Positions 4,612 through 49,225 of a stretch of DNA of 64,000 bases are shown piece after piece. The first letter of the stretch is position 1. The number at the start of each line of letters is the position of its first letter. The position numbers and the translations under genes are program-made. The DNA comes from an uncultured Bacilli bacterium (GTDB lineage Bacteria; Bacillota_I; Bacilli_A; RF39; UBA660), in NCBI GenBank assembly GCA_947626035.1, contig CANQQR010000001.1, positions 13,096 to 77,095 of the forward strand, in the 5' to 3' direction. The notes beneath the pieces were generated by a model. It saw only the letters and a program-made list of their open reading frames with translations, searched no databases and was not told where the DNA came from.

Positions 4612-4640
4612 TTGACAAACAAAAGATAAAGTGATATAAT
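4612..4640 (+). promoter_or_regulatory. Consensus promoter for family-A paralog 2
   Basis: TTGACA 4612-4617, TATAAT 4635-4640, same leader as 424-500. Confidence 0.6.
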
Positions 4641-4694
4641 AAAGCTACAAGGTAAGAAAAAACAAAAATAAATTTTTAAAGGAGGAATTAAGTT

Positions 4695-5084
4695 ATGACA
4701 AAGAAGGAAATGTTTGAAAAGGTAATTGCACTGGTGGAGTCCGCAGAAGTTGAGAACAAGGATGAAATTCTGGAGAAGCTTAACCATGAGGTGGATATGC
4801 TGAACAGTAGAAAGAGTTCGTCCAAACCTACCGCGGTTCAGAAGGCGAATGACGTCCTTATGAAGCTTGTTAAGGAGATCCTGGCGGAACAGGAGAATCC
4901 TGTGTCTGTAACTGAACTCATGCAAGATCCGCGCCTTGCTACGTATACCATTGAAAAGGAAGATGGCCCCTCGGTTCAGTATATGACGAACCAGAAGCTT
5001 ACCTCTATCCTGGGTAAACTGTGTGACGTTAAGGAGGTTGTGAAAACGGTAGAGAAAAAGAAGTCCTACTTCTCTATTGCCTAA
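4695..5084 (+). CDS. Early protein, paralog family A (copy 2)
   Basis: See 504-923; same promoter and leader architecture. Confidence 0.6.
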   Translation: MTKKEMFEKVIALVESAEVENKDEILEKLNHEVDMLNSRKSSSKPTAVQKANDVLMKLVKEILAEQENPVSVTELMQDPRLATYTIEKEDGPSVQYMTNQKLTSILGKLCDVKEVVKTVEKKKSYFSIA

Positions 5085-5185
5085 TGGGTGGGTGGGGTAT
5101 ATCCCTACCCACCTAAAATCAAAAATTTGATTTTAAAAAATTTTTTTGATATAATTATTATATCAAAAGAAAAGAGGGAATTAGC

Positions 5186-5593
5186 ATGACATATAAGCTA
5201 GGGAAACGCACAATCAGGATTCCAGATTCAGATATTGCGCGGTCGGTGGAAAAGTTAGGCATAACCAGAGATGAAGCAATCCAGATGTGGTTAGAGGATG
5301 AGGGATACCTGGAGAATGAAGAGCAAGAAGCCTTGGAGCGGAAAGCTAAAGAAAATCGCATAACCGCAACTATTCATCAGGCAAGCGCAGTCGATGTTCA
5401 AAAGAAAACTCAAAAGGAGAGAGTGAGAAAAGAAGATCCAACAAAGGAGCTAATTATAGCAAAAACCGCGGAATTTCTTAAAGAATATGCGGAAAATGTT
5501 ACAATAATTAACGTTGGAAAGCTGATTTCATTCAAAATTGGCGATGATGATTATGAATTTAACCTAATTCGCAAGAGAAAACCTAAAAAATAG
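5186..5593 (+). CDS. Hypothetical protein, paralog of 4001-4375
   Basis: ORF with GAGGGAATTAGC RBS; paralogy by shared motifs. Confidence 0.45.
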   Translation: MTYKLGKRTIRIPDSDIARSVEKLGITRDEAIQMWLEDEGYLENEEQEALERKAKENRITATIHQASAVDVQKKTQKERVRKEDPTKELIIAKTAEFLKEYAENVTIINVGKLISFKIGDDDYEFNLIRKRKPKK

Positions 5594-5647
5594 CACGGGC
5601 GGGCGCTAAAAAGCGCCCAAAACCTCGCAAAATGGAGGAAAATAACA

Positions 5648-5872
5648 ATGTATCATGTATTTATTGATGCTGGCGGTGAAGTGTTATGTAAAACTGTGGA
5701 TGATGCTATTGACTATGTAAGAAATTGGGTTAGTGAAAGAGGAGCCTTAAATAGTCTGACTTTTGACTTCTCTAACTGGGATATGAAATATATTGTTTTT
5801 CACATAGATCATGATGGTTATTATTGGCTAGGATGTATTGAGCTTTTACCTATTTGGAATAAGGAGGAATGA
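5648..5872 (+). CDS. Hypothetical small protein
   Basis: ORF with GGAGG RBS. Confidence 0.35.
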   Translation: MYHVFIDAGGEVLCKTVDDAIDYVRNWVSERGALNSLTFDFSNWDMKYIVFHIDHDGYYWLGCIELLPIWNKEE

Positions 5873-5875
5873 TAC

Positions 5876-6100
5876 ATGGATTTTATTTGGTATCTTAACT
5901 GGGAGAATGAATCAGTAGCATTTTCTACTAAAAAGCAGGCTATTGAATATGTAACTAAGAGAAGCGAAGATGCAGATTGGGGCTTGCAGTGGGATGAATC
6001 ATTGGAAGATTACATTAGTTTTATTTCAACTTGGTACGATGGTGGAGAAGAAACTTATGTTATTAAAGCTGTGCCATTCAATCCAGACCCGGAGAGCTAG
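5876..6100 (+). CDS. Hypothetical small protein, weakly similar to 5648-5872
   Basis: ORF coupled to upstream gene; terminator hairpin 6108-6140. Confidence 0.35.
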   Translation: MDFIWYLNWENESVAFSTKKQAIEYVTKRSEDADWGLQWDESLEDYISFISTWYDGGEETYVIKAVPFNPDPES

Positions 6101-6276
6101 ATTCGCCGGGTCCTGATCTGGCATCAGGACCCGCTTTCCGCATTTTCACCTAGCATATGCAATTTTTCCCTGGAATTTTTGATCCTCCCCATAGCGCGAT
6201 TCATCCCGAATCAATCTCACCCCTCAACACCTCGCAAGATCCACCTTACCTACCTACCTCTTCCCAACCTGACCCC

Positions 6277-6740
6277 ATAACGCCACAGACCCACAACCGC
6301 CGCTCTTATAGCAAAAAATTGGTTCCTCCCGCCCCATTTTTTTATTGCTCTAACTGAGTTATTTTAACACCAAACTGCTACATTATTAAGTTTACGAGTA
6401 TTTCTCCACATTTTATATAACTTGCTTCAGAGAAGCTCGTATAACGCCACAGACCTACAACCGCCGCCTATAGCAAAAAATAGACCTCTCCGCTAACTCT
6501 TTTATTATAGTCTAACTAAGTTAGCGTAAGCCTAAACTGCTACATTATAACATTTCCGAGTCTTTCTCCATTCGAAAATCTTCTTGCCTCAGGCGGGGTC
6601 CCTCGCCCTATGACGGCCACATACCCGCAAACCGCGTTTTCTAAGTCCCTCCCGCGGCTCTTTTATTATAGTCTAACTAAGTTAATTTAACCCCATTTTG
6701 CTACAAATATACCCCGACGAAACTTTGTAAGTCCAAATTT
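6277..6740. repeat. Approximately three tandem direct repeats of ~164 bp (iteron-like), non-coding
   Basis: Unit ataacgccacagacc(c/t)acaaccgccgc...ctaactaagtt...aaactgctacatta... starts at 6277 and 6441; a partial third copy lies at ~6615-6735. Confidence 0.6.
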
Positions 6741-6874
6741 TTTCTCAGCTCAGATTGGCAGCTGAATTAAAATTTAAATACTTTATTGACTTTTGAAAAA
6801 AATTATGATATAATATATACATAAAAGATAGGAGATATTTTACTATTCACTTTTGTGTAAAGGAGAGCTGACTA

Positions 6875-7284
6875 TGGATATTAATAAGACTATTGCTGAG
6901 ATGATGAAAGATATGTCTGAGGATGACGTTAAGGCGGCGGTTAATAAAGCCATTGCCGCGGAGAGGATTCGCAGAGAAGCGGAGGCCGAAGCTAAAAAGA
7001 AAGCATCAGCTGCCTCAGAGCGGGATAATGTAGCTCAGTTACGGCGCATTGCCGCGAACACTATGTCTGGCTATATGAAGGCCGCGATGCCCAAGATTTT
7101 TGGTGATATTGACAATCTTGCGGACCAGATTGAGGAAGCGTTCATTGAGACCGAGGAGGAGTTTAACAGAACCAGAACTATGTTCGATATTATCATGGAC
7201 GCTCTTGAGGATGAGGACAAAGACAGTTCCAAAGAAACTGAAGATGATGATGTGATTGCAAACTTTTTAAGGCACCTCAGTTGA
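6875..7284 (+). CDS. Hypothetical acidic coiled-coil protein
   Basis: ATG 6875 after AAAGGAGAG RBS; consensus late-type promoter at ~6780-6815. Confidence 0.4.
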
Positions 7285-7675
7285 GAGGTGCCTTAGATGC
7301 AGTACATTGAAAAACGAATAAGGAGCTAGGGTAAGGGTAACGATGAACCTGCAAAGGATGAGGAAGACGGTGCCTGCCCACCACACTTCCTCAATCTTTA
7401 ATAATTTTAATTATTTCTGCTTTCACACTTCCTTAATCTTTACAATTTTAAGTAATCTTTATTCATCTTAAAAGATTTTTTTAACATCTTTTCAACCTTC
7501 CGCACCTTTTATCTACATTCATACGTATAATCTCTATATTCTTTTTAATAATTATGACACTCCTCCATGTTATAAATATTATACCCTATTCTTCTATTCT
7601 ACCTCTTTTATCAAAATAAAATTCAAAAACCAGTTTTGGAAATCATTTTTCAAATTTAAAAATGAAATTTTCAAA

Positions 7676-8356: not shown

Positions 8357-8962
8357 TTAACACGCCGCTCTCTGAGGTCTATTAGTCACGCTCATAATCA
8401 CTATCTCTCTATGGTCAACATCAGTTTGAACCAACTTATACTCAATAAAATGCAATTCTTGAAGTACATATAAAATATTATTAATAACATGATTGTTACT
8501 TGTAGTGGTTGCCGCGATTCCAATAAAAGACTTCATTTGATTCATAGTAACAATAAAAGACTGTTCTTTATTAGCTATATATCTATTTAATAAATATACA
8601 TAAATACTAATAGTATATTGGCCTAAAGTATCTGTAAGCATTTCTAAAGTATCCAATGGTATCAATGCAGCATCTGCCTTATCAAGATAATTCAATCTGT
8701 AATACTTAGGTCTCACAGGATCTTCTTCAACCAAGCCAATCTTCAGCAAATCTTTAAACCTAGTAGAAGCAGTTTGTCTACTAATCTTCATCTTTTCACC
8801 AAGTGCTACATAATTAATTAATTTCTTTTCTACATACCTTCCGCCATCAAGTAATACTGACTCTTGCTGTAAAATTCCATAAAGTAAATCATTGTATTTC
8901 TTGTCAGCAGTATATTTTTTTGTATCAGGAATTTGTCTTGAATTACTCTGAATTGTTAGCAT
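8357..8962 (-). CDS. Putative DNA-binding protein (winged-helix-like)
   Basis: Segment ISRQTASTRFKDLLKIGLVEE resembles an HTH; function otherwise unknown. Confidence 0.35.
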   Translation of the reverse strand: MLTIQSNSRQIPDTKKYTADKKYNDLLYGILQQESVLLDGGRYVEKKLINYVALGEKMKISRQTASTRFKDLLKIGLVEEDPVRPKYYRLNYLDKADAALIPLDTLEMLTDTLGQYTISIYVYLLNRYIANKEQSFIVTMNQMKSFIGIAATTTSNNHVINNILYVLQELHFIEYKLVQTDVDHREIVIMSVTNRPQRAAC

Positions 8963-9164
8963 ATGTTTTCATCTCCTTTCTATTCTTTGATATTATACTT
9001 AAAAATTAAAATATAACGATTTAACTTTAACGCCCAACCATAAAAACTTTAACATATTTATTAAGAATAGAAAAAATTAAACATATTTGCTATCATCAGA
9101 AAAATTCTAACATATCTTGCATTTTAAGAAAAACCTTAACACGATTTTTTAACATTGACTAAAA

Positions 9165-9764
9165 TTAAATATTAATATTCCACTCTGGTCGGAAAAGCTG
9201 TCTATAGTACGCTTCTCTATCAAATCTATTTACTTTATCGCATTTTTCAAGAATAGTAAAGTTGTCTTCTGTAAGAAAAGGTCTCTTCTGACAGTGCTGC
9301 TGGATCCGCTTGTCTAAATGTTCAGTAGATCCAACATACATAATCTTATTATTATAAATAATAGCATAAACATAATTAGTAGAATCATATTTTTTTACGT
9401 CTTTCTTTATAGAGCATAAAGATGTCCTAGATACCCCAATTAATTTACATATTTCGCTATCCGATTTTGCAGGGAATCTATTCTTACATATATGATAAGC
9501 TATATACACAGAGGAATCTTTAAATATATGATCTCTAATAAACTGTAACTCTTCTGTTGTCAAATCAAAGGGATCATTTACTATAATATTTTCATTGGAA
9601 TCTTCAGATATTATTTCATCATCAACCAACTCTTTATAATATTTAGCTAACGATTGTCTACATTTACCAACTATTTTTGATAAACTACTATAATTAATTT
9701 TTTTCATTGTATGCTGATGTAATAACAAAAATAAATATACATCATTGGTTAGTAAATACCACAT
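9165..9764 (-). CDS. HTH plus GIY-YIG nuclease-domain protein (free-standing homing-endonuclease-like)
   Basis: C-terminal YVYAIIYNNKIMYVGSTEHLDKRIQQH... matches the GIY-YIG core; N-terminal HTH-like segments; strong RBS TAAGGAGA before ATG at 9764. Confidence 0.5.
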   Translation of the reverse strand: MWYLLTNDVYLFLLLHQHTMKKINYSSLSKIVGKCRQSLAKYYKELVDDEIISEDSNENIIVNDPFDLTTEELQFIRDHIFKDSSVYIAYHICKNRFPAKSDSEICKLIGVSRTSLCSIKKDVKKYDSTNYVYAIIYNNKIMYVGSTEHLDKRIQQHCQKRPFLTEDNFTILEKCDKVNRFDREAYYRQLFRPEWNINI

Positions 9765-9934
9765 TTGTTAAAATCTCCTTATCTACTTTTATAAGTTATA
9801 AAAAAATAGGTCAGAAAAATTTTAACATCTTGACCATCTTATAACTTTTCTTCCGACCCCAATCTCTTCATTCGATTTACTTATCATACTTTCGACATCT
9901 TTATATTTGTCCAAAAATTCCAACAAAACAAACT

Positions 9935-10255
9935 TTACCTAGGCATATCACTAAATGACCAATGCTCACCTTCACCATCAGTTAACATTAAGTAACCATA
10001 GTCAATTAACTCATCATAAAAACTCTCAAGTTCCTCCTCAGTCACATTACAGAACTTCATAATCTCTTCATTATCAAGCACATAATCATTATCATCTTCC
10101 AAAACGCCCAAACACATCCATACCTTAAAACCTTCTGTTGATAAAAGCTTCATAGCTATCTTAGTAGCCTGATCGTCAAATATTACTTCTCTCTTATCAT
10201 CACTGAACGCGGTTTGCAGGTTAATGGCGTCTTTGACCTTACTCTTTTTACCCAT
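9935..10255 (-). CDS. Hypothetical acidic protein
   Basis: ORF with GGAGGTGAAGATAG-type RBS on minus strand. Confidence 0.4.
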   Translation of the reverse strand: MGKKSKVKDAINLQTAFSDDKREVIFDDQATKIAMKLLSTEGFKVWMCLGVLEDDNDYVLDNEEIMKFCNVTEEELESFYDELIDYGYLMLTDGEGEHWSFSDMPR

Positions 10256-10271
10256 CTATCTTCACCTCCTC

Positions 10272-10562
10272 TTAATCCTGATACCCGCAGCAGTTATATC
10301 CCTTCTGCCACTCCTCAAAAGACAAAGGACTCTTCTCATATCCACTCTTCAGATACTTCAAATACTCCTTATACTCAGCATCTTCTGCGTCTTCCTTCTC
10401 CAACGCTTCTATCCTAGCCCTCAACATAGCAATCTGACCGTCAAGCCTACCAATCTTATCATCATAATCAACAGCTAAAGTACCAAGAATACCAGCTAAA
10501 CTAATCAAAGCCAAAATAATAAAAACATAAATCACACGGTTACCCTCCCTATAAGACGTCAC
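10272..10562 (-). CDS. Small membrane/coiled-coil protein
   Basis: N-terminal TM helix then a heptad-like segment LDGQIAMLRARIEALEKE. Confidence 0.4.
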   Translation of the reverse strand: MTSYREGNRVIYVFIILALISLAGILGTLAVDYDDKIGRLDGQIAMLRARIEALEKEDAEDAEYKEYLKYLKSGYEKSPLSFEEWQKGYNCCGYQD

Positions 10563-10566
10563 AGGT

Positions 10567-10722
10567 TCAGTTCAAGTCTTCATAACCACGAACCTGCATT
10601 ATTAAATATGTCACTTGGTTCTCAAGCTTTTCAACTCTACTATCCAACTGACCTAACTTCCAACCAATAAAATAACATAATCCAACTAAACAAACACCAC
10701 TAAAAATACCTAATACAATCAT
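10567..10722 (-). CDS. Small membrane/coiled-coil protein, possible paralog of 10272-10562 (not in ORF track)
   Basis: 52-aa ORF with the same TM-then-coiled-coil pattern; weak RBS. Confidence 0.25.
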   Translation of the reverse strand: MIVLGIFSGVCLVGLCYFIGWKLGQLDSRVEKLENQVTYLIMQVRGYEDLN

Positions 10723-10808
10723 CGCGGTTTCCGGGTCTATGGATGTCAGTGAGGCAACTATAAAACGCCACTAACCCACAGCCCGCGTCTCCTTTCTTTC
10801 TCTTGATG

Positions 10809-10873
10809 AGAGTGAATGCTTGCATTCACTCTTTCTATACTTATATTATAACAAAAATTCTCATCTTTGTCAA
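10809..10873 (-). promoter_or_regulatory. Minus-strand consensus promoter (TTGACA...TTATAATAT) plus leader hairpin agagtgaatgc-N3-gcattcactct
   Basis: Reverse complement of 10845-10873 gives TTGACAaagatgagaatttttgTTATAATATA; hairpin at 10809-10832. Confidence 0.5.
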
Positions 10874-10975
10874 CTCCTCACCCGCAAACCGCATACACTT
10901 GACAAATTTTAAAAATTTTGTTACAATTAAAATGTCCAAAGAAAAACAAAAGGAAAGAAAGGTGCTAGATCTATT

Positions 10976-11206
10976 ATGACAATACGAGAATTAATTAACA
11001 AATTAACAGTATTAAGTAATGTTCCTGATCTATCTCTTGATAGTGAAATATCTATCTTCAATAGTTCTATATACATAGGACAACCAAATAAATACTTTAT
11101 CATGATAGATCCATACGATGACAATACCGCATATGGCTATTTAGTACCATTAACACCAAAGGGAGAAAATGATGACATTAACACAAGAGCAAAAAGAAGC
11201 AATTAG
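10976..11206 (+). CDS. Hypothetical small protein
   Basis: ORF downstream of promoter at ~10895-10930. Confidence 0.35.
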   Translation: MTIRELINKLTVLSNVPDLSLDSEISIFNSSIYIGQPNKYFIMIDPYDDNTAYGYLVPLTPKGENDDINTRAKRSN

Positions 11207-16902: not shown

Positions 16903-17640
16903 ATGCACAGGAATAAACGAAATGGTAAGGTATATATAGGAATAACAAGACAAAATCCACCAGAAAAAAGGTGGGCAAAAGGTAGAGGCTATCATCATAA
17001 TGAATATTTCCGTGCCGCTATTGAAAAAGATGGATGGGAAGAAGGTTTTGAACATATTATTTTAGAGGATCATTTATCTCAAGAAGAGGCTTGTAAAAAG
17101 GAAAAAGAATTAATTAAAGCATATGATGCGACGAATCCAGAAAAGGGTTACAACCTAGCAGATGGAGGCGTTCATCTCGGTCCCACATCTTTTGAAAAAC
17201 TGACAGAATGGCACAACACGCATAAGAAATTTGGTAAAGATAATGTGTCTTCAAAAAGAGTTAGATGTATTGAAACCAATGATGTTTTTGGATCAATATC
17301 TGAAGCTTGTAGATGGTGTGATTCAACAAAAGTTGGAGAGTGTTGTAGAGGACATAGAAAACATGCAGGTACCCATCCTAAAACTGGAATACAATTATCT
17401 TGGGAATACGTGGATGATGATACAGAAGTTACTATAATATGCAATGAACATCAAGATAATGAATACAGATGGAAACCAACAGATAAATACAAGAAAGTTA
17501 TGTGTATAGAGACAGAAGAAGTTTTTAGAACTGAAGCAGAAGCGTGTAAAAAGTATGGGGCAGCGCGAGGAACGATAGGACGTGCATGTTCGGGCAAAAG
17601 AAAAAGTGCTTTAGGAAAACATTGGAAATGGGTAGAATGA
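16903..17640 (+). CDS. GIY-YIG homing endonuclease (free-standing, I-TevI/Seg-like)
   Basis: N-terminal GKVYIGIT...R...GYN...E matches the GIY-YIG core; C-terminal repeated V.CIETN/E.VF.S..EAC.. NUMOD-like DNA-binding modules. Confidence 0.65.
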   Translation: MHRNKRNGKVYIGITRQNPPEKRWAKGRGYHHNEYFRAAIEKDGWEEGFEHIILEDHLSQEEACKKEKELIKAYDATNPEKGYNLADGGVHLGPTSFEKLTEWHNTHKKFGKDNVSSKRVRCIETNDVFGSISEACRWCDSTKVGECCRGHRKHAGTHPKTGIQLSWEYVDDDTEVTIICNEHQDNEYRWKPTDKYKKVMCIETEEVFRTEAEACKKYGAARGTIGRACSGKRKSALGKHWKWVE

Positions 17641-19634: not shown

Positions 19635-20243
19635 ATGGCTTATAGCGTTTTATCAAAAGAAGGTCAGCAAGGAGGCATCATACACTTCCTTGCTGATACA
19701 GATAAAGATATTATATTTATAATTGATGACTGTAACGCAGGTAGCACCATTAGTGTTTTGAAAGAAAAGCCGCATACTTATATGAAAGCACCTAGCGGAA
19801 AGTGGATTTTAGTTAATGGCGATAGCGATTATCAAGTTCCATTCAATAACGCGGAGGTCGAAGTACCTAAAGCAGATGCTAAGTTTAGTGATAAGACCGC
19901 GGCGGACCTTCAAGAGAACATGGTCTTTTATAAAACTGGTTTGGTCACTGGTACACTTAAGAAATCTACCTATCCAGCTATTTATACAGAAGAAGATAAA
20001 AAGAACGAGCAAGATGGCGACACAGGTCACTTCTTCTGTGCTAACTTAAAGACTCCGCCAAAAGCTACAGAGTATAATATGGTTCTCAATGAAGAGACCA
20101 CTGTGAAGGTTAAGCCTGTTGATGACTGGGTTATGGTTTGTATGGAGCATATCCAAGTAAAGGATAAGACCAAGACTGTTAGAATTACATACGATAGCGG
20201 AGAGTCTTTTACTTTTAACTTAGATCATGTTGATTTAGAATGA
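19635..20243 (+). CDS. Tandem paralog 3 of 3
   Basis: MAYSVLSKEGQQGGIIHFLADT...CNAGSTI...KAPSGKW; ATG 19635 after GGAGGTG RBS. Confidence 0.5.
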   Translation: MAYSVLSKEGQQGGIIHFLADTDKDIIFIIDDCNAGSTISVLKEKPHTYMKAPSGKWILVNGDSDYQVPFNNAEVEVPKADAKFSDKTAADLQENMVFYKTGLVTGTLKKSTYPAIYTEEDKKNEQDGDTGHFFCANLKTPPKATEYNMVLNEETTVKVKPVDDWVMVCMEHIQVKDKTKTVRITYDSGESFTFNLDHVDLE

Positions 20244-20293
20244 CGCGGGAACGCGGATATATGACGTCACGGGGCTAGTTTACTAGCCCTTCA

Positions 20294-20367
20294 GGGACCT
20301 TGGCCTAATTGGTTAAGGCATCTGGCTCATAACCAGACGATTCTGGGTTCGAGTCCCAGGGGTCCCA
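20294..20367 (+). tRNA. tRNA-Met/Ile2 (anticodon CAT)
   Basis: Manual cloverleaf: acceptor gggacct/gggtccc, D stem gcct/aggc, anticodon stem tctgg/ccaga with loop ctCATaa, T arm ctgggTTCGAGTcccag. Confidence 0.7.
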
Positions 20368-20386
20368 CTCATAGGGAGGTGTTGAT

Positions 20387-20656
20387 ATGGGTAAATCTTA
20401 TAAAAAGAATCCTTATATCACCCAAGAAAAAGAAAATACTAAATTGCTTAACAGAAGAATAAGGTATGCGAAGCTCTATGAGTTTAATACTCCTGGGTCT
20501 TTTAAGCGTTTTTTCTCTAATTGGGGATACAAGAGTCTATGGACGAAAGAAGATGCAATTGCTTCGTATCTCAAACATCCTGAAAGATATGAAAAGAGTT
20601 TTCCCACGCTTGAAGATTGGCTTGAATACTGGCGGAGATGTGCTTATAGAAAATAG
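20387..20656 (+). CDS. Hypothetical basic protein
   Basis: ORF with GGGAGG RBS immediately after a tRNA. Confidence 0.4.
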   Translation: MGKSYKKNPYITQEKENTKLLNRRIRYAKLYEFNTPGSFKRFFSNWGYKSLWTKEDAIASYLKHPERYEKSFPTLEDWLEYWRRCAYRK

Positions 20657-20919
20657 CGTTTGGGCAAAGTTGATTAATTGATTTTAACAAAAATTTTTGA
20701 TATAATATTTATATGATAAGAAAGGAAAGATGAACAAACGGATCGTAGTAATCTTTCTGTAAATTTTTTCAGACCAGGATCCTCGTCCCTAGCGTGATAG
20801 CCTTGAGCTTCGCGCCAAGGCCGCCATGCGGAAAGGCTGTTAGGAAAAATACTTATCATTTGATTTTAAAAAAAATTTTTGTTATAATATATGTATAAGA
20901 AATAAAGAGGAGAAAACGT

Positions 20920-21120
20920 ATGAAGTCTTATTTTGTTGTGACTTTTGGTTGGGAAGGTCTTGCTAAAAGGCATAAGATGGTAGTCAAGTACTCCGATGAT
21001 TTAAAGCTTTGGTTCTGCTATGATGAAACAACCGAGACATACAGAGGTCCCATGTTTCACTCTTATAACGAACTGTATGACTGGATTAGTGACTATACAT
21101 TAATTCAAGAAGCTGGGTAA
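20920..21120 (+). CDS. Hypothetical small protein
   Basis: ORF behind consensus promoter 20860-20900. Confidence 0.35.
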   Translation: MKSYFVVTFGWEGLAKRHKMVVKYSDDLKLWFCYDETTETYRGPMFHSYNELYDWISDYTLIQEAG

Positions 21121-21452
21121 AAATGCTTCATTGATTTTTTAAAAATTTTATGATATAATATATTTATAAGATGAAAGAGTAAATAAAAAACATTTACTCT
21201 CATAGACACCTTTACAGCAAACACATTTTCACCCCTTTCAGAAAATGATGAATAATTAAGGAGGAAGTGGGATTCCCACATCCAGCAGGCGGTAGATTGA
21301 GTTGTTGAGTCACTTTGTATCCGCTGGTTTTACTTACTTACTAACTACTCACGGGTGTCTAGTGACTCCTGACCTGGCTATGGTGTAATGGCTACGAAGA
21401 AAAGTACAATGGGAGTAAGGAGGAATATACCAGTGAATACTCCTTAAAATCT

Positions 21453-21527
21453 TGGGATGTAGTTCAGTTGGTTGAGAATGTCGCTCTGATAAGGCGAAGA
21501 TCTTGGGTTCAAGTCCCGACGTCCCAA
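21453..21527 (+). tRNA. tRNA-Ile (anticodon GAT)
   Basis: Acceptor tgggatg/cgtccca, D stem gttc/gaat, anticodon stem tcgct/ggcga with loop ctGATaa, T arm ttgggTTCAAGTcccga. Confidence 0.65.
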
Positions 21528-21799
21528 CTAAGGAAGATGCGGTCCCTCTCATCCTATGGCAAAAACAGATGCGGGACATATTATATCAAACGGTAGTTTA
21601 ATAGGTTAGAACAACTTTGAGGTTGGTCCTGGTTCGATCCCAGGTCGTGCGATATAAAAACTTTCATTGACTTTTTAAAAAATTTTTGTTATAATATATA
21701 TGTAATCGGAAAAGCAAAGAATCATCTGAAGGTTCGGCGGTGACGTTCTGCCCTAAACGTAAAACCGAGAGTTCGCAGATCTTGATAAAACTGCGGTTT

Positions 21800-21873
21800 G
21801 GCTCCTTCCTCTAACTGGTTTAGGAGGTCTGCCCCTCACGCAGAGAATATGGGTCCGAGTCCCGTAGGAGTCA
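21800..21873 (+). tRNA. tRNA-Glu-like (anticodon CTC; loop cCCTCAc with C at position 33)
   Basis: Acceptor ggctcct/aggagtc, anticodon stem tctgc/gcaga, T arm atgggTCCGAGTcccgt. Confidence 0.5.
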
Positions 21874-22251
21874 CTAAGGCCCGATGGAGTCCTCACGAGT
21901 CCATCCGCACTAAGCAAAGCGTAAAAGTGCTAGAGGATGAGAAGAAAGATTGGAGGGTTCGATTCCCCCGCTGGCAAGTCTGCTGGTCCTGGGTGTGGTA
22001 ATCTGAAGAATCTCATGAGGTTTTGGATAAAGTAAACTTGGTTGCCGCCTTGTTGAAATTGGATGACCTAATCCTCGTTAGGAGCGGCGGCAACCGCTCT
22101 TAAGAGCCACTTCGACTACGTAGGTTAAGTCGCATCTCTCAATAGGAGAGGGATGAAAGTAAGGTGCAAGTCCTTACAGTGGTATTCGTGTCTTTTTAGA
22201 CACTTTGTCATACCTCTCTTAAAAAAATAAAGGCGGTCTTATGACCGTCAC

Positions 22252-22324
22252 GGTCCCTTCTTCTAAGTGGTCAGGAAGCTAGCCCTTCACGCTAGCAATG
22301 TGGGTCCGAACCCCGCAGGGATCA
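22252..22324 (+). tRNA. tRNA-Glu-like (anticodon TTC; loop cCTTCAc with C33)
   Basis: Acceptor ggtccct/agggatc, anticodon stem ctagc/gctag, T arm gtgggTCCGAACccccg; near-paralog of 21800-21873. Confidence 0.5.
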
Positions 22325-23603
22325 TTGAGTACTTATGTACTCATGAGGTGCGCTCTTGACACCTAAAACAGAGCTGCTTTGTTGGTTTATAAGCCAAAAT
22401 CAACCTCTAGCGGGAGTTCCGTAAGGTCTTTGGTCTTGTCACCGTTTAATTCCAAGACTGCGCTACTGGGTAATGGGATCCCGAAAACCGCGGGCGCTGC
22501 TAAAAACTGCGGAGATGTAGATACCAGTGCTACATAAACTTTGCTTGATATTCAGTTCACGTATCATAACAGATACGTAGGAATATTTGTCTTTCCCTCC
22601 GCTTTGCAGTTTTGGTAGTTTCTGTTTTCAAAAACTACCTATATTTTTCTCTATTGATTTTTAATAAAAATTTTGTTATAATATATACATAAGATAAAGA
22701 AAGAAAGATTTTGGCTGTGTCGTATATAGGTTAATACGTCAGATCATCTCTGAAGACTGAGGTTCAATTCCTCACATGGCTATTTACCGGTTTCGAGCAG
22801 GGTAGCTCCCCGTCAACCGGAAACCACTTACCATTCGGGATTTACGTTAGTAAGAATGGGAGTCCAAAGTACAAGGACTAAGCAAGAAGAATTTCTTGTG
22901 ATTTTCTATTAGAACGGTTTAACCATTTGGCTATCTGGGTTCAATTCCCAGAATAGCTACTCGTGGCTCGGCTGTATCCACGTAAAACATGAGCAGTTAT
23001 TGAGATCTCGACCGCGCACTCGGGCGGTATATAAGCTGACAGGGAGTTTTGATGGGTAAGAAAAATCTCGGAAAATATTGTAAAAATCCATTCGGGATTG
23101 TTGACAGAGGTAGCGACTGTCAGTGGCGTCTCGTGATAAAAGCCACGCGTGAAACTCCTTGGGGAAGTTGCAAATTCCTCATGTAGTCCTTGCTCACAAG
23201 GCGGTTATGCAACCGACTGAATGCTTCGGGACTGGCAGACTCCATGGTATGCTCGCTTGAGAGTGTCTGCTCGCTTAGTCAGAGCGTATAGGTGACAGCC
23301 ATATTGTAAGATGGTTATTTACTTACAACGTACTAGCAGATTTTAACTTCCTGTACGTTAAGCAGGTGGAGCATCAGAAGTATGTTTATAAGACTCCGTA
23401 GATACAGACCTACGTTAAAAAGGTGTCGCGCGGAACCCGACGCAAGTTCGAAATATCGGGCGGCTGTGATGGTAGCAATAGATAGTCGCGAATATCCCAC
23501 CCTTCGTACTGTGCGCGAGGTAAAACGAATCCACAGCGTAATAGTATAAACTTCTTAATACGTTAAGTTAAGTGAAGCCAGAAGTACGTTTTCAAGGCTA
23601 TAT

Positions 23604-23686
23604 GCACATGTGGTGGAATGGCATACACCTGGCACTTAAAATGCCACGGACTTTGGTCCATGCGAGTTCGAGTCTCGCCATGTGTA
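23604..23686 (+). tRNA. tRNA-Leu (anticodon TAA), type II with variable arm
   Basis: Acceptor gcacatg/catgtgt, anticodon stem tggca/tgcca with loop ctTAAaa, variable hairpin cggactttggtcc, T arm gcgagTTCGAGTctcgc. Confidence 0.65.
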
Positions 23687-23962
23687 TTGGGAGAGCATAG
23701 ACTCCTAGACATTCACAGGCTGATATACCCTGCAAAGTATACTCACTTGTCATGAACAGCGCGGTTGGTAGATGAAAATCCATGCAAGAGGAAAGAAGCG
23801 TCCCTATCAACTGCGCTCCTCTCTTTGAGCCTGTACCCGAATTGGCATAGGGACTTTTAAACTTAATAAATTCTTTAAAAATTTTGGGTACGATTAACAA
23901 ATCTTCTTCTTTTAATTTTTAAGTATTTATAGAAAATAAAACAATAAAGGAGAAGATTCGTT

Positions 23963-24706
23963 ATGGCTCAAAGATTAGATATATTAGATCGAAAAGAGGA
24001 CATTTTAAGATGGATTGAGGAAGGTCAACCTAAGACTTATATATGCAAGGAGTTGCAATGTAAGCAAAGTACCCTTAACAAGTATTTAGAAATTATGGGT
24101 ATTGAATATAAGGGTGTATCTGGATATAGAACTCCAGAAAGTAGAGAAAAATACAGTAACTATATTGATGCATTAACCTATATTCAAAGAGATAAAAGTG
24201 TTAAATCTAATACATTAAAGCAAAAATTATTTAGAGATGGTATAAAAGAATATAAATGTGAGTTATGTGGTTTAAATACATGGTTAGATGGGCCAATTCC
24301 TCTGGAACTTCATCATAAAGATGGAAATCACTATAATAATAATTTAGATAACTTACAAATTCTATGCCCTAACTGTCACGCATTACAACCTAATAATAGT
24401 GGCAAAGCGGTAAAGATTAAAGTTAAGGAAAAGGAAAAGAAAACAAAGCCTTGCCCTAATTGCGGAAAACCTATTGGGATAAAATCTAGGTTATGCACAG
24501 AATGTGTTCATAAAGAACAATATGTTTGCGATCATCCGTCAAGAGAAGAATTAAAGCAGATGATTAGAACTGTTCCTTTTGCCCAAATTGGTAGAAAATA
24601 TGGAGTAAGTGATAAAGCAATACCAAAATGGTGTATTAGTTATAATCTTCCAAGTAGAAAAAAAGATATAAATGGCATCTCAGACGAAGATTGGGAAAAA
24701 ATTTAA
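23963..24706 (+). CDS. HNH endonuclease with N-terminal HTH (homing-endonuclease-like, inside the tRNA array)
   Basis: ELHHKDGNHYNNNLDNLQILCPNCH HNH motif; additional CxxC pairs. Confidence 0.6.
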   Translation: MAQRLDILDRKEDILRWIEEGQPKTYICKELQCKQSTLNKYLEIMGIEYKGVSGYRTPESREKYSNYIDALTYIQRDKSVKSNTLKQKLFRDGIKEYKCELCGLNTWLDGPIPLELHHKDGNHYNNNLDNLQILCPNCHALQPNNSGKAVKIKVKEKEKKTKPCPNCGKPIGIKSRLCTECVHKEQYVCDHPSREELKQMIRTVPFAQIGRKYGVSDKAIPKWCISYNLPSRKKDINGISDEDWEKI

Positions 24707-24734
24707 TAGGTAGCTATGCTACCTACCTATCTAT

Positions 24735-24823
24735 GGAGCGGTATCCGAATTTGGCACAGGAGCGTGATTTAGGCTCACGTAGGCTGGATAGGCCGTCTAA
24801 GGGTTCGAATCCCTTCCGCTCTA
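24735..24823 (+). tRNA. tRNA-Leu (anticodon TAG), type II
   Basis: Acceptor ggagcgg/ccgctct, anticodon stem cgtga/tcacg with loop ttTAGgc, long variable arm, T arm aagggTTCGAATccctt. Confidence 0.65.
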
Positions 24824-24987
24824 CTGGTTTACTGAGGGTTCAAGTTCCTCTCGGCCTACTAAATGTGTGAGGTTTGGAATCCTCTTAACTCAACCGAGCA
24901 CCGCATTTAAGTACATTTTTCTTGCAAGAAAATTTATTATTAGATGTGTGGCCTTCTCACATACAGCATATAGGACTAGAAGGCATT

Positions 24988-25059
24988 TACGATATGGTGT
25001 AATAGGTAGCACGTTCTCATGTAGGGAGAAAAGTGAAGGTCCGAGTCCTTATATCGTAG
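24988..25059 (+). tRNA. tRNA-Tyr-like (anticodon GTA), short variable arm
   Basis: Acceptor tacgata/tatcgta (perfect), D stem gtgt/gcac, anticodon stem ttctc/gagaa with loop atGTAgg, T arm aaggTCCGAGTcctt. Confidence 0.5.
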
Positions 25060-25341
25060 TTTGGTGAAAAGATTTCTTGTCAGGGCCGGCTATTAAATTA
25101 GCATAACGACCCTGAGTCCTAGGGACAAGAGTTCTGACTAGCCATTTTAGGGCTGTAAGCTAACTTAGTAGAAGCGCATGCCTGAAGAGCAGGAGGACTT
25201 GGAGCGTAACCAAGATGGCCCATTAGGCGGACCCATGAACACATGAGCGTATATGTTCGCTAAGAAAGTCCTTATATCAGACAAAAGTAGAACAAAACTG
25301 ATAGGGTTTGACCTCAGAATCTACTAATGAGGTCAATATTT

Positions 25342-25427
25342 GACGGGATGGCAGAGCTGGTTTAATGCTCCACACTGCTAACGTGGCGATCCTCACGGGT
25401 CCGAAGGTTCGAATCCTTCTCCCGCCG
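25342..25427 (+). tRNA. tRNA-Ser-like (anticodon GCT), long variable arm
   Basis: Anticodon stem ccac/gtgg with loop ctGCTaa, T arm gaaggTTCGAATccttc; acceptor gacggga/tcccgcc has one A.C mismatch, so boundaries are tentative. Confidence 0.4.
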
Positions 25428-25468
25428 TCTGGACGTAACAGTCCAAGATTATAATAAGGAGCGGCGAA

Positions 25469-27361
25469 ATGAGAAAGAAACAAGTATGTGCGATGTTTCT
25501 CTCTACTAGCCTAACCATTATGCACGTTTGCGCGTGCCCTATGACAATTCTAGCTAATGAATGTTATGACGTTACAAGCTTTGAGGAGTTGCAAAATGCA
25601 ATAATGGAGGCTAATAATGGAGACATCATAAGAATTGTAACAAGAGAACCGCTAGAGATTTCAGATACAATAGATATAGATAAAGAATTAACTATCACTG
25701 GCGGAACTCTAACAAGAGCAGAAGACAAAACAATATTTAATGTAACTGGAGATTTAACCCTTGAAAGCATAAAGCTGCAAGGCACAAGAGAAGAGAAGAC
25801 TTGGACACATTCACCAGTAATTTGCGAAGGTAATCTAACATTGGAAGACAATGTTACGATTACTAATTTTATAGCAAGGCGCGGCGGTGGGTTATACGTC
25901 GCGGGCGGTGGTGATGTAGTTCTTAACCAAGGTTCAAGAATTATTAATAACGAGGTCCATGCAATCGATCGCTATAACATAAGCGATTCCGCGGTTGGTG
26001 GAGGTATTTTTATCGACTCAGGCGGCTCAGTGGAGTTAGAAGGCGGTATTATTGATGGTAATAAAGCTACTGTCGAGAATGCTTATGATCAGGTTGCGAT
26101 AGGCGGCGGTGTTGCTATCAAAGAAGGCGGACGCTTCGTTATGAATGGCGGCTATATTACAAACAATAGCGTCAGTGGATATTATGGAACTGCGGAAGGC
26201 GGCGGTATTGCCGCGGGAAGCGACCACTACTATCCATCATTCGAGGGTCTTGGTACTGTAAGTTCAGATGACTTACAACTTAACGCTGGAACCATAGCGT
26301 CTAATAGCGCAGTCCGCGGAGGTGGTATTTATTATCACTCTGGCGATACTTTATATCTTGCGGACGCCGCTATAACCGACAATGAAGCTAGGTTCGGCGG
26401 AGGTATCTGGTATTGCCAAGTAGGTTATGGGCAGCTGGGTACGTCGCTTCACTTAGGCGGCAACCGCGCGTCTCGATATGGTGATGACCTATACTCTGCC
26501 AATCCTTTTGGTATGTTTGATGGTTATGACTGTGCTTTTGAGATGTCGCTGCCAGATACGACAACGTGGTATGACGATTATACCAATAACAAAATAGAAG
26601 ACATAAATAGATATTTGTATGGCTACGCCATGATATGGTACTGGGGCGTAGCTGATGAAAACTTTACAACATGGCTTGATGAAAACTCTGATCTCAACTT
26701 TCCCCTTGATAGGGAATGGGAGGATCTAGCGCTGAAAGCTGAGAATGGCGTGGACAGTTGGTCACACGCGTTACAAATCAAGAACAATGTGGCGTCACAA
26801 GAAGGCGGTGGCATTGCTTGTAACGGTAGACTAGAAGCGCCAGATAAGGAAGTTCCGCCTCCTCCACCTCCGCCAGCTACTCCAAGTGAGCCTGAGAAGG
26901 AAACAGAGCCAGATATTCCAGTATCTACACCTAGTGAACCTGAAAGAGAAACAAGTACTGAAGAGACTACTGCACCTAGCACCGAGGAAACTACTGAAGA
27001 AGAAACTACTCCACCAACAGAAACAAGTAGTGAGGAATATACCGAACCTAGTATTGAGAAAGAAACCACACCTGCGGAGACAGTTCCTGAAGAGCCAGAG
27101 ACTCCGCCAGATGAGACAACGCCTGAACCTGTGACTCCCACAGAGCCGCAGCCCGCGCCTCCAATTGAGTATTTCCCAGATGAGCAAGTTCCATTAGGTA
27201 GTTTTGAAGCATTCGAGGATGAGGAAGTTCCACTCGCACCTTGGGAAGCACCTAGAACAAGTGATACTAATAAGGCTGCACAAGCTGGTTTCATAGCTTT
27301 GCTTGCTCTTGCTTCAATGACTCTGTTTGGTCATGAGATACGTAAACACAAAGATGATTAA
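25469..27361 (+). CDS. Secreted beta-helix repeat protein (polymorphic-membrane-protein-like GGG[IV] repeats) with Pro/Thr/Glu-rich linker and C-terminal hydrophobic anchor
   Basis: N-terminal signal-like segment; at least 7 repeats such as GGGLYVAGGG, GGGIFIDSGG, GGGVAIKEGG, GGGIYYHSG; PPPPPPATPSEPEKETEP... linker; C-terminal AGFIALLALASMTLFG plus KHKDD; higher GC than flanks. Confidence 0.55.
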   Translation: MRKKQVCAMFLSTSLTIMHVCACPMTILANECYDVTSFEELQNAIMEANNGDIIRIVTREPLEISDTIDIDKELTITGGTLTRAEDKTIFNVTGDLTLESIKLQGTREEKTWTHSPVICEGNLTLEDNVTITNFIARRGGGLYVAGGGDVVLNQGSRIINNEVHAIDRYNISDSAVGGGIFIDSGGSVELEGGIIDGNKATVENAYDQVAIGGGVAIKEGGRFVMNGGYITNNSVSGYYGTAEGGGIAAGSDHYYPSFEGLGTVSSDDLQLNAGTIASNSAVRGGGIYYHSGDTLYLADAAITDNEARFGGGIWYCQVGYGQLGTSLHLGGNRASRYGDDLYSANPFGMFDGYDCAFEMSLPDTTTWYDDYTNNKIEDINRYLYGYAMIWYWGVADENFTTWLDENSDLNFPLDREWEDLALKAENGVDSWSHALQIKNNVASQEGGGIACNGRLEAPDKEVPPPPPPPATPSEPEKETEPDIPVSTPSEPERETSTEETTAPSTEETTEEETTPPTETSSEEYTEPSIEKETTPAETVPEEPETPPDETTPEPVTPTEPQPAPPIEYFPDEQVPLGSFEAFEDEEVPLAPWEAPRTSDTNKAAQAGFIALLALASMTLFGHEIRKHKDD

Positions 27362-27431
27362 TTGATTTTTAATAAATTTTTTGTTATAATATATGTATAA
27401 GATAAAGAAAGAGTAAAAGGAGAAAAACAAA

Positions 27432-27746
27432 ATGTATAAATTCTACGTGACGGACAATAAGGTGATTTGTGTAACTACATATGCTGGCAAGACTGTGCGG
27501 GGCGTCGCTAAGTGTGATCCTAGAGATACTTTTGATGAAGAGTTTGGTAAGTCTCTTGCAAAGGCGAGAGCTGACTTTAAGGTAGCTAATAAGCGATATG
27601 ATAGAGCTATGGCTAAGCTGGATGAAGCTAGAGCCGCGAGTCGTAAAGCATATGATCGGGAAGAGGATATGTGGAACTATTTAGAAAGTGCGGAAGCGGA
27701 GTATAACAGAGCCTTAGAAATTATGGAAGCATATGATAATACTTAA
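27432..27746 (+). CDS. Hypothetical protein
   Basis: ORF behind consensus promoter 27362-27400; terminator hairpin gcggtcttatgaccgc 27746-27761. Confidence 0.45.
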   Translation: MYKFYVTDNKVICVTTYAGKTVRGVAKCDPRDTFDEEFGKSLAKARADFKVANKRYDRAMAKLDEARAASRKAYDREEDMWNYLESAEAEYNRALEIMEAYDNT

Positions 27747-27766
27747 GCGGTCTTATGACCGCGAGT

Positions 27767-27857
27767 GGAGGTGTAAGCCTAATTGGTAAGGCAGCGGTCT
27801 TGAAAACCGCTAGTAACCGCGATGAGCGGCGTCAGAGTTCAAGTCTCTGCGCCTCCG
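27767..27857 (+). tRNA. tRNA-Ser (anticodon TGA), type II
   Basis: Acceptor ggaggtg/cgcctcc, anticodon stem gcggt/accgc with loop ctTGAaa, variable arm ccgcgatgagcgg, T arm cagagTTCAAGTctctg. Confidence 0.7.
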
Positions 27858-28128
27858 TTCAACCAAAGAAAAATATTTGATTTTTAAAAAATTTTATGAT
27901 ATAATATATACATAAGATAAAGAGAGAGAGTAAATGCTTTGCATTTACTCTACAACGGGAGAGATGTGCGGAGTCACGTTTCTTAGGCACGTACAGCAAA
28001 TATACTTTAAGCTTATTAAAAGTATTTTGTCGTTGGTTCGATTCCAACTTTTTCTTAATTGAAAAGTAGCTCAGATGGGAGAGCAATACTCAAAGTTTTT
28101 TGTGCCTAGTAAATATTAAAAGGAGGAA

Positions 28129-28491
28129 ATGACTATGGAGCGTTATGCAATTTTGGCTTGTGAAGCAATGTACGGTGGTTCTAATGGTATTTACACAACT
28201 AGGATCTTTGAGGGATCTAGACATGATGCAGAAGAACTTGCAACGCAGCTAAGTTTAGATGTAATGGATAGTTATTTCTTCTTCTATGATGAATTTTCTG
28301 AAGCAGCAAGAGAACAGGGATATGAAGAGAACTCAGATGAGTTTGATGACTATGTCATAAGTTGCTATGAAGAGAATATTGAGTATCGCATTGGAAAGAT
28401 TAGAAGCGATGTTACCCTAACTTCTAATGAATTAGAAGAACTACTTGAAAATGATTGGGAAGAGTTCTTTGAAAAGTATTGTATATTATAA
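28129..28491 (+). CDS. Hypothetical acidic protein
   Basis: ORF with AAAGGAGG RBS. Confidence 0.45.
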   Translation: MTMERYAILACEAMYGGSNGIYTTRIFEGSRHDAEELATQLSLDVMDSYFFFYDEFSEAAREQGYEENSDEFDDYVISCYEENIEYRIGKIRSDVTLTSNELEELLENDWEEFFEKYCIL

Positions 28492-47941: not shown

Positions 47942-49225
47942 TTGAGTAATAATAATACTAATACTAATTTATATAATGATGATTCTATACAAAGCCTTGA
48001 TCCTCGTAGTTTCACAAGACTTAGAGCTGGTGTATATTGTGGATCTACAGAATATAGTACACAATTACTTATTGAAATAGTATCTAATGCTATTGATGAG
48101 TGGTCTATTGGTAATGGAAGTGTTATTAATGTTGATTATAAAGATGATGGAAGCTGTAGAGTAGAAGACTTTGGTCAGGGATTTCCCATTAATGTGATGA
48201 GAGATGATGGAGAAACCGTTCTACAAGCTTCTTTTGATGTATTGAATACTTCTGGTAAGTTTACAGATGATGGCGTTTATGAAGGGACAGCACTTGGTCT
48301 TAATGGTATAGGCGGAAAGCTTACTAATTTCTTATCACTTTGGTGTGATGTGTATACATATCGAGACGGTAAAAGTGAGCATATTTGCTTTAGAGATGGT
48401 ATCTTCCAAGCAAGAGAAGTAGGAGAGCAAGGTAAATTTCATACGGGTACTATTGTTGAGTGGAAACCAGATCCTCAGTTCTTTGACAATAGACAAATTG
48501 AGGTAGGTAGAATTAAGAAGTTATTCTACGAATGGACTTGTTTGTGTCCCGGGCTAGTAATTAATCTAACTCATAACGGATCGGATCAGGTTACATTCTC
48601 ATCTAAGCATGGCTTAAATGATCTTGTAGATGATATTGTGAAAGATAATGAGATTATTAAGAATAGGTTAGATATTAGTCATAAAGATGGAAAAAATAAA
48701 TTAAATTTTGTGTTGACTTATTCAAATAGTTACTCTCTTAATATAGTTCCATACGTGAATACTGGCGAAACAAGCGACGGCCCGCATATTAGGCAGGTTA
48801 AGACTATTATCACTAGAGAGTTTAATAAGTTTTATAGAGAGAAGAAGTGGCTGAAAGATAAAGACGCCAATCTTGAAGGTGGAGATATTCAAGAGGGTAT
48901 GGTTATTGTATTTAATATCACCGCTCCTGGAGTATCTTATGATGCACAAACAAAGTCAAGAGTAGTTAAACTTGATATGACTCCTTTCTCTAGTGTGATA
49001 GCCGACGGCGTCCAGACGTGGCTTAATAGTAATGAAAAAGATATCAAAGCTATATTTGATAAAGCTATTAATGCAAGGAAAGCGCGGGACGCGGCTAAGA
49101 AAGCTAGAGAGGCAGTCCGAGAGAATCAAAAGAAGAAGAAAGAAAAAGTTCTCAAGTTTGATAGTAAATTAGCAGATTGTTATAGCAAAGATAGAGCTAA
49201 ATGTGAGATATATATAACTGAGGGT
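47942..49225 (+). CDS. Type II topoisomerase ATPase/B-like subunit, exon 1 (GHKL ATPase plus transducer, ends ...CEIYITEG)
   Basis: RLRAGVYCGST (as in GyrB GLDAVRKRPGMYIGDT), IEIVSNAIDE (as in HLVWEIVDNAVDE); TTG start; the ORF is cut inside the Toprim EGDSAGG motif. Confidence 0.65.

Follow-up and report, generated by a model that had tools for sequence, protein, structure and literature searches.

Here we have analysed a 64,000-nt window of DNA (contig CANQQR010000001.1, positions 13,096 to 77,095 of the forward strand) in which a gene for a predicted surface protein sits inside a tRNA array; the window is part of a large phage, about 140 kb, of a Gram-positive gut bacterium, probably one of the Clostridia and probably Lachnospiraceae- or Oscillospiraceae-like. 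We consider it likely that the gene is a host-derived accessory gene whose product displays a non-enzymatic binding head on the surface of the infected cell.

The relatives of the protein carry much of this argument. In an index of 5.8 billion proteins its only close relative is P0002 (75% identity), encoded on a 3.6-kb contig from an independent sample (locus L001, 71% nucleotide identity), and an identical protein, P0001, lies on an NCBI contig of 139,594 bp. Beyond these two, all relatives of the head domain are bacterial, in line with the suggestion of a first-pass annotation that this is a bacterial surface protein rather than a virion protein. An exhaustive HMMER search returned 720 matches, the best being P0024 (2523 aa, 41% identity over residues 32-460), and in a GTDB scan the domain turned up in metagenome-assembled genomes (MAGs) from the gut of rabbits and mice that belong to Lachnospiraceae, Oscillospiraceae, Dysosmobacter and unclassified Clostridia. 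These relatives are surface proteins of 830-2500 aa, for example P0024, P0035, P0026, P0028 and P0037 and those of loci L003-L008. The best-matching ones share a plan of signal peptide, sometimes an acidic spacer, head and stalk repeats: the head ends in ...EGGGIACNGxLIMGEDKD..LTVKKxW, and Pfam finds Cna_B/SpaA/DUF5979/DUF7601 repeats in P0003, P0024, P0035, P0026, P0028, P0037 and P0013. Where the C-terminus is complete, a Pro/Thr-rich segment leads to (D/E)EVPL...xP[KEQM]TGD, after which come a hydrophobic helix and a tail that is first basic, then acidic.

The phage protein shares both ends of this plan. BLASTP aligns its head with that of P0024 at E = 1e-72 (35% identity over 490 columns) and its C-terminal end, residues 529-604, with residues 2410-2492 of the same protein at E = 1e-4; its head is 36-43% identical to the heads of L003p and P0025. 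The likeness thus runs through a homologous signal peptide and head (35-43% identity), including the terminal EGGGIACNG, and resumes in the Pro/Thr-rich pre-anchor segment, the doubled EEVPL, the position of the pentapeptide, the transmembrane (TM) helix and the charged tail. There are differences too: the phage copy has a Pro/Glu/Thr linker of about 110 aa and no match to the Cna_B/SpaA/DUF5979/DUF7601 models, its pentapeptide is APRTS where the family has xPxTG, and its gene lies in a tRNA array whereas the family genes lie in bacterial chromosomes. Since both ends align with P0024, the phage protein looks like a Clostridia surface protein from which a stalk of about 1900 aa has been deleted.

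We found no characterised member of this family of beta-helix heads on Cna-B stalks. Phage collections yielded no relative: tblastn of the protein and megablast of window positions 20000-32000 against 50,697 phage records gave no match, nor did PHROGs with the full protein, and IMG/VR, scanned both with the single protein and with an alignment of the head, contained no relative. A first scan of JGI metagenomes found nothing and a second only distant relatives (25-36% identity), and phmmer against PDB sequences gave only a chance match to PRMT7 (E = 0.26). Some of the distant sequence matches carry PF02415 or the name 'polymorphic outer membrane protein'. In one Oscillospiraceae MAG (L008, CAJTFK010000008.1) two tandem paralogues with near-identical N-termini, at 3879-7373 and 8424-11177, suggest local duplication and variation of the surface-protein family; the neighbourhoods of the bacterial homologues, inspected by eye, showed no common operon partner.

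The layout of the protein agrees with this origin. The open reading frame (ORF) lies on the plus strand at exactly the coordinates given by the first-pass annotation (Table 1), in the tRNA array between tRNA-Ser(GCT) and tRNA-Ser(TGA), and both hydropathy and composition agree with the order of signal, head, Pro/Thr/Glu stalk and C-terminal anchor that it had drawn. Exactly two hydrophobic segments occur in the 630 aa (residues 5-29 and 602-625, by hydropathy). The first looks like a Sec signal peptide, with n-region MRKKQ, a hydrophobic core at residues 6-25 and a c-region in which ILA precedes NE; ILA/VLA before NE is kept in P0002, and the homologues have canonical signal peptides. A lipoprotein reading of the same region was rejected, as VCAC is not conserved (ICAD in P0002, without the second Cys). 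In the head, eight GGG motifs (GGGL139, GGGD146, GGGI177, GGGV212, GGGI244, GGGI284, GGGI310 and GGGI446) stand against 1.0 +/- 1.0 expected from composition-preserving shuffles of the domain; seven of the eight are GGG[ILV], and the earlier count of at least seven holds in that wider form, only six being GGG[IV]. The stalk had been placed at 26860-27180 behind eight prolines, which is close to its extent of about 26843-27172, but the proline run is seven long. Composition over residues 459-575 is 26% Pro, 26% Glu and 20% Thr, and a search for a DNA tandem repeat in the linker found none. The last 62 residues read FPDEQVPLGSFEAFEDEEVPLAPWEAPRTSD-TNK-AAQAGFIALLALASMTLFG-HEIRKHKDD, so that the hydrophobic C-terminal segment with a short basic tail is indeed there (residues 603-621, then HEIRKHKDD), laid out as in the homologues. 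An antisense ORF over the linker (26623-27294, minus strand, 223 aa, rich in Gly, Ser and Val) is a reverse-complement reading of the Pro/Glu/Thr codons and almost certainly no gene.

The GC content of the gene is numerically above that of its neighbours, as had been remarked (44.9% versus 38.2 +/- 5.1% in 50 other ORFs of the window, z = 1.3). We rejected this as a sign of recent transfer: the excess stems from Gly, Pro, Ala and Thr codons and so is no signature or evidence of foreign DNA, and GC at third codon positions (GC3) equals the phage mean (34.5% versus 33.3 +/- 10.8% in the same 50 ORFs).

A model of residues 30-470, built with a 15-row family alignment free of MAG-derived rows (predicted local distance difference test score, pLDDT, 81.5; predicted template modelling score, pTM, 0.85), consists almost wholly of beta structure up to a pair of helices around residues 380-405, and its stacked three-strand coils form a right-handed parallel beta-helix. 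The fold assignment that the first-pass annotation had called for is thereby given by the model; in Pfam the only match is PF13229 Beta_helix, below threshold (23.4 bits against a gathering cut-off of 25.9, E = 5.1e-5), a label that the identical P0001 carries precomputed. An NCBIfam scan of the full protein gave nothing at E <= 1. Calling the protein Pmp-like describes a resemblance only and fails as a family label, as the Pmp models PF02415 and TIGR01376 find no match at E <= 1, and the proposed likeness to an autotransporter had to be dropped: there is no beta-barrel and no Pfam autotransporter match, and the protein has a single C-terminal TM helix, a Gram-positive host and a sortase-type anchor.

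By fold, the head model matches mannuronan epimerase AlgE4 (score 25.5), Rhombotarget A (24.1), Pel9A (23.5), several tailspikes (about 23), Vag8 (22.7), PfbA (21.7), the Lactobacillus reuteri SRRP (19.9) and pertactin (18.8); the top Foldseek match is Rhombotarget A. The fold, as modelled, thus does not by itself separate enzymes from adhesins. Among viral structures the head is closest to BFVD entry A0A8S5MNL7 (Siphoviridae sp. ctZZK17, 603 aa, 20% identity, E = 2.6e-8), which comes from an uncultured gut siphovirus and is annotated with an S-layer homology domain, a second, independent wall-tethered beta-helix in a gut phage contig.

It is possible that the head is a polysaccharide-active enzyme, a lyase, hydrolase or epimerase anchored at the surface and acting on host capsule, exopolysaccharide or wall glycopolymer, with a pay-off in receptor destruction (superinfection exclusion, or progeny that do not adsorb to debris) or in loosening of the matrix for release. 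We regard this as unlikely. In an alignment of 17 family members, conservation of 80% or more is confined to structural positions, with Gly, Asn or a hydrophobic residue, together with Y288, W314, C316, D340, W367, Y368, C451, D459 and K468, the last two just past the head: Gly/Asn turns, aromatics, two Cys and two Asp (D340, D459), among which we found no acidic or basic catalytic cluster of Asp, Glu, Lys, Arg or His like that of lyases, hydrolases or epimerases. Pfam, NCBIfam and PHROGs matched no carbohydrate-active-enzyme family. Furthermore, the head of the bacterial homologues sits at the far end of a very long Cna-B stalk, an adhesin-type layout. Taken together, the missing charged cluster, the missing carbohydrate-active family and the stalk-tip position favour a binding module, and the head most likely binds a ligand rather than cleaving one.

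How such a head would be held at the cell surface is a question of the C-terminus. Its last 60 residues match the NCBIfam model NF033073 LPXTG_double ('doubled motif LPXTG anchor domain') at 20.3 bits (E = 4e-4) over profile positions 6-64, or 59 of the 66, and the tail of P0002 scores 18.3 bits; four bacterial homologue tails score 39-55 bits, three of them passing the curated cut-off of 48. The shortfall of the phage tail arises mainly at the pentapeptide (APRTS versus xPxTG). Homologue tails that end in a hydrophobic segment were detected 32 times; the last residue of the pentapeptide is Gly in 27 of them and Ser in three, namely the two phage proteins and the bacterial P0066 (NPKTSD plus a TM helix). 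Between the phage copies DEEVPL(A/V)PWEAPRTSD differs by a single A/V despite a Ks (synonymous divergence) of about 2, with synonymous sites near saturation, and the tail KHKDD is identical while the helix upstream of it has diverged, the pattern expected of a signal read by a machine. We take the C-terminus to be a probable, diverged doubled-motif LPXTG sorting signal homologous to the bacterial tails. Ser at P1' need not block sortase, because wild-type Streptococcus pneumoniae SrtA accepts Gly, Ala and Ser there, cleaving LPATG, LPATA and LPATS (PMC8361268), and because P0066 also has NPKTSD. Covalent anchoring to the wall by sortase is nonetheless uncertain, since the canonical Gly is missing, NF033073 stays below its cut-off and TIGR01167 gives no match.

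The same substitution admits another explanation, that Gly-to-Ser at the sortase site is adaptive and that the phage has turned a host adhesin into a surface device for the time of infection. A Thr-Ser bond that is uncleavable or slowly resolved would turn the protein into a decoy or jammer of sortase, or into an exclusion factor tethered purely to the membrane: the head would remain membrane-bound, a type-I anchored shield of the infected cell against further phage adsorption, or occupied sortase would leave the cell with fewer surface proteins, phage receptors among them. Both phage copies keep PWEAPRTSD exactly at a Ks of about 2, Gly prevails in the homologue tails, and the NF033073 score is much reduced. 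There are also phage-encoded surface lipoproteins that block superinfection, T5 Llp and Streptococcus thermophilus TP-J34 Ltp; sortase-targeted superinfection exclusion has, to our knowledge, not been described. Against an adaptive decoy stand the acceptance of Ser by some sortases (PMC8361268), the Ser of the bacterial homologue P0066, and the strong purifying selection on the large head (ratio of nonsynonymous to synonymous divergence, Ka/Ks, 0.11), which a mere decoy would not need. On balance we think this explanation quite improbable.

The status of the gene in the phage can be judged from related loci. In L001, the homologue P0002 again lies directly after tRNA-Ser(GCT), within a run of five tRNAs, and a promoter element of the same type as in the window again follows its stop codon. 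Ten related phage loci (L012-L021) were retrieved via the conserved protein encoded at 30770-32266; tRNA arrays lie upstream of this marker in all but one, which starts too near the marker, and the head domain occurs in none of the ten within the array portions covered. In L015, from a 139,648-bp IMG/VR contig whose marker protein is 70% identical, tRNA-Ser(GCT) at 5918-6004, a homologue of ORF 27432-27746 at 6216-6437 and tRNA-Ser(TGA) at 6525-6612 follow each other so closely that the interval is too short for a 1.9-kb gene, which places the insertion (or loss) of the gene between tRNA-Ser(GCT) and the small ORF. The surface-protein gene is thus an accessory gene, polymorphic in presence and absence among related phages; of the earlier term 'moron' this part stands, while consensus scans found neither a promoter nor a terminator of its own. 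Comparison of the two phage copies gives a Ka/Ks of 0.15 for the whole gene and 0.11 for the head, at a Ks of about 1.4, so that the gene is under purifying selection and has been kept by it.

Two further explanations are very unlikely in view of these results. That the gene encodes a tailspike or receptor-binding depolymerase of the virion, and lies in the tRNA region by coincidence, is hardly credible: a Sec signal and a C-terminal TM anchor are incompatible with cytoplasmic assembly of tailed virions, no N-terminal particle-binding domain is present, the PHROGs, tblastn and IMG/VR searches found no phage counterpart, all real homologues are bacterial wall-anchored proteins, and the gene lies among tRNA, nuclease and RNA-repair genes rather than structural ones and is missing from related phages. 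We give equally little weight to an inert passenger (a chance capture of host DNA) or an assembly artefact (a chimeric contig), either of them without a role in the phage, for which the two known copies and the bacterial closest relatives might speak, but which an independent sample with the gene at the same position, at 71% nucleotide identity and with the phage promoter element after it, the Ka/Ks of 0.15, a GC3 ameliorated to the phage value and an intact ORF with a strong Shine-Dalgarno sequence all contradict.

A number of points weigh against a captured, surface-displayed binding protein. As to the anchor, the NF033073 scores of 20.3 and 18.3 bits lie far under the cut-off and make covalent anchoring uncertain, TIGR01167 does not match the phage C-terminus, and APRTS in both copies lacks the canonical Gly. 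A search of the window for a phage-encoded sortase by the TLxTC motif found none; its one match, ORF 41933-42481, was rejected as an AAA_33 kinase. Epimerases, lyases, hydrolases and tailspikes match the fold equally well, so that an enzymatic head is compatible with the fold, and the conservation analysis draws on 17 sequences only. Export by Sec is inferred from hydropathy and from the homologues; promoter and terminator assignments are consensus matches, and only two copies of the phage gene are known.

With regard to transcription, the window holds 20 copies of an extended -10 promoter, TTGATT-N14-TGnTATAAT, all on the plus strand and each about 29 nt with an A/T-rich N14 spacer, where 0.23 would be expected by chance; they probably define early or middle transcription units of this phage family. 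No copy lies between 22682 and 27362, and a consensus scan found no terminator-like site after the surface-protein gene, which probably comes last in a tRNA-HNH-tRNA transcript of the host sigma-A polymerase. The copy just after its stop codon marks the 3' boundary of the inserted gene.

Assembled into a sequence of events, a host-type sigma-A promoter some 2.8 kb before the gene would drive its transcription along with that of the tRNAs, and translation would start from the gene's own strong Shine-Dalgarno sequence. The protein would be exported by Sec, with predicted cleavage after ILA29, and retained by its C-terminal helix and charged tail, whereupon sortase may transfer it to the wall between Thr and Ser of APRTS; if Ser blocks cleavage, it would instead remain tethered to the membrane. 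The linker of about 110 residues could span the wall, up to roughly 30-35 nm when extended (an estimate from residue count), and present the head at the surface. The most plausible benefits to the phage, which we do not rank against each other, would be adhesion or aggregation of infected cells and masking of a surface receptor; the surface remodelling, exclusion and biofilm interaction proposed by the first-pass annotation are candidate roles as well.

There is precedent for parts of this scheme. SasX/SesI is an LPXTG surface protein carried on phiSPbeta-like prophage in Staphylococcus aureus and S. epidermidis, where it alters colonisation and aggregation (PMC7047976, PMC10232760). SasX is the nearest functional precedent, as a phage-borne gene for a sortase-type surface protein, although it has no sequence or fold relationship to the beta-helix protein, bears a canonical LPXTG in place of APRTS, and is expressed from a resident prophage (lysogenic conversion), whereas the carrier here is a tRNA-rich phage of about 140 kb. 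Among known wall-anchored beta-helix adhesins, PfbA of S. pneumoniae and the SRRP binding region of L. reuteri (PMC3718772, PMC5866549) show only 10-14% identity, a similarity at the level of the fold; neither has the GGG-turn repeat or the doubled anchor motif, and both are encoded on the chromosome. Glycine-rich turn repeats on a beta-helix are shared with the chlamydial Pmp proteins (GGA[ILV]/FxxN repeats) and with Acinetobacter Rhombotarget A (RbtA, 9cdu/9cdv), but the Pmp proteins are Gram-negative autotransporters with a beta-barrel and RbtA has a GlyGly-CTERM/rhombosortase signal, in contrast to the Gram-positive sortase-type signal of the phage protein. To T5 Llp and TP-J34 Ltp the likeness is one of concept only, an exported phage product tethered on the outside of a cell that is infected or lysogenic; Llp and Ltp are small lipobox lipoproteins, whereas the present protein has a 430-aa beta-helix head and no conserved lipobox.

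Phage-encoded surface proteins are thus an established concept, to which this case would add a host surface protein that was captured, shortened and maintained with a PxTS variant. Phages of gut Clostridia are mostly known from metagenomes only and their accessory genes are mostly unreadable, but the present one is legible. Should the protein be displayed, it would be a concrete example, open to testing, of how a phage changes the surface of a Gram-positive gut commensal while infecting it, and the conserved PxTS variant poses a small, sharp biochemical question about sortase cleavage. The comparison also flags a widespread, uncharacterised family of Lachnospiraceae and Oscillospiraceae surface proteins with a beta-helix head on a Cna-B stalk.

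Table 1. Features of the surface-protein gene and its surroundings, in window coordinates.
Feature	Position	Strand	Remarks
Surface-protein coding sequence	25469..27361	+	630 aa plus stop, ATG start
Shine-Dalgarno AAGGAG	25456..25461	+	7 nt 5' of ATG, read from sequence
Predicted Sec-type signal peptide, residues 1-29	25469..25555	+	hydropathy; c-region conserved in P0002
Head domain, residues 30-458	25556..26842	+	right-handed parallel beta-helix (model); GGG[ILV] turns, Asn ladder, EGGGIACNG end
Pro/Glu/Thr-rich low-complexity stalk, residues 459-568	26843..27172	+	replaces Cna-B/DUF5979/DUF7601 repeats of homologues
Pro7 run, residues 463-469	26855..26875	+	inside stalk
Doubled motif DEQVPLGS ... 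DEEVPLAP, then APRTS-D	27173..27265	+	xPxTG-D there in homologues
Predicted C-terminal transmembrane helix (residues 603-621) and charged tail HEIRKHKDD	27275..27358	+	hydropathy
tRNA-Ser(GCT)	25341..25429	+	39 nt upstream of ATG
tRNA-Ser(TGA)	27766-27858		downstream of surface-protein gene
Nearest upstream promoter copy	22654..22682	+	about 2.8 kb before gene; probable start of its transcription unit
Next promoter copy	27362..27390	+	1 nt after stop codon; predicted to drive ORF 27432-27746 and tRNA-Ser(TGA)
All promoter copies	5127, 6786, 11428, 12751, 14758, 16735, 20678, 20860, 21131, 21667, 22654, 27362, 27877, 29270, 37716, 41256, 55029, 55244, 57499, 61116	+
HNH ORF	23963-24706	+	inside tRNA array
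GIY-YIG ORF	16903-17640	+
GIY-YIG ORF	55686-56660	+
GIY-YIG ORF	9165-9764	-
RNA-repair-like set	37775-38797, 40000-41241, 41933-42481, 42488-43027, 30770-32266		near tRNA array
Probable endolysin, 490 aa	45224-46696		CHAP plus choline-binding-type repeat; extra N-terminal region of about 200 aa
Topoisomerase II subunit genes	47942-49231 and 50925-53258

The remainder of the window fits a phage. ORFs matching phage families encode two topoisomerase II subunits, a DnaB-like helicase, an RNA ligase, a PhoH-like protein, a DNA ligase, a radical-SAM protein and phrog_850 (labelled RNA-binding protein). The host is taken to be Gram-positive because the lysin of the window combines CHAP with choline-binding-type repeats; of the proteins of isolated phages, the endolysin of Blautia phage Montmirail matches it best (46% identity), and further matches are to human faecal phage contigs. 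About 1.7 kb separates the two topoisomerase II genes, with two small ORFs between them (49649-50158 and 50348-50935). Homing-endonuclease-like ORFs, one HNH and three GIY-YIG, are scattered across the window, and pieces resembling the C-terminal end of the HNH protein recur in the tRNA arrays of related phages. The RNA-repair-like set comprises a nucleotidyltransferase, an RNA ligase, an AAA_33 (polynucleotide-kinase-like) kinase, a metallophosphatase and a DUF2828/DUF7788 protein (phrog_850), and may counter host defences that cleave tRNA.

The tRNA array itself holds 16 ARAGORN tRNA genes over 20294-30701. Rfam adds tRNA-like genes that ARAGORN missed at 22713-22782 and 25150-25222 (47.5 and 31.7 bits, one of them barely above threshold), and the last tRNA of the array (30630-30701) has an abnormal 2-nt 'aa' anticodon in the ARAGORN output. 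Elsewhere, tRNAs with a CTA anticodon, amber suppressors that ARAGORN labels tRNA-Pyl, were seen in L017 (2518-2610), L032 (6424-6512), L034 (629-716) and L035 (6776-6851), in L032 within the same array as a tmRNA gene (4732-5031); they may point to TAG recoding in related phages, and no CTA tRNA was found in the window. Finally, the tRNA array of another related phage, L036 (IMGVR_UViG_3300045988_169876), contains a 250-aa ORF at 1803-2555 with a clearly signal-peptide-like N-terminus, MLKKKAILTGLILSLSLLLFKADATAANK..., and tRNA arrays may perhaps be a recurrent landing site for genes of exported proteins.

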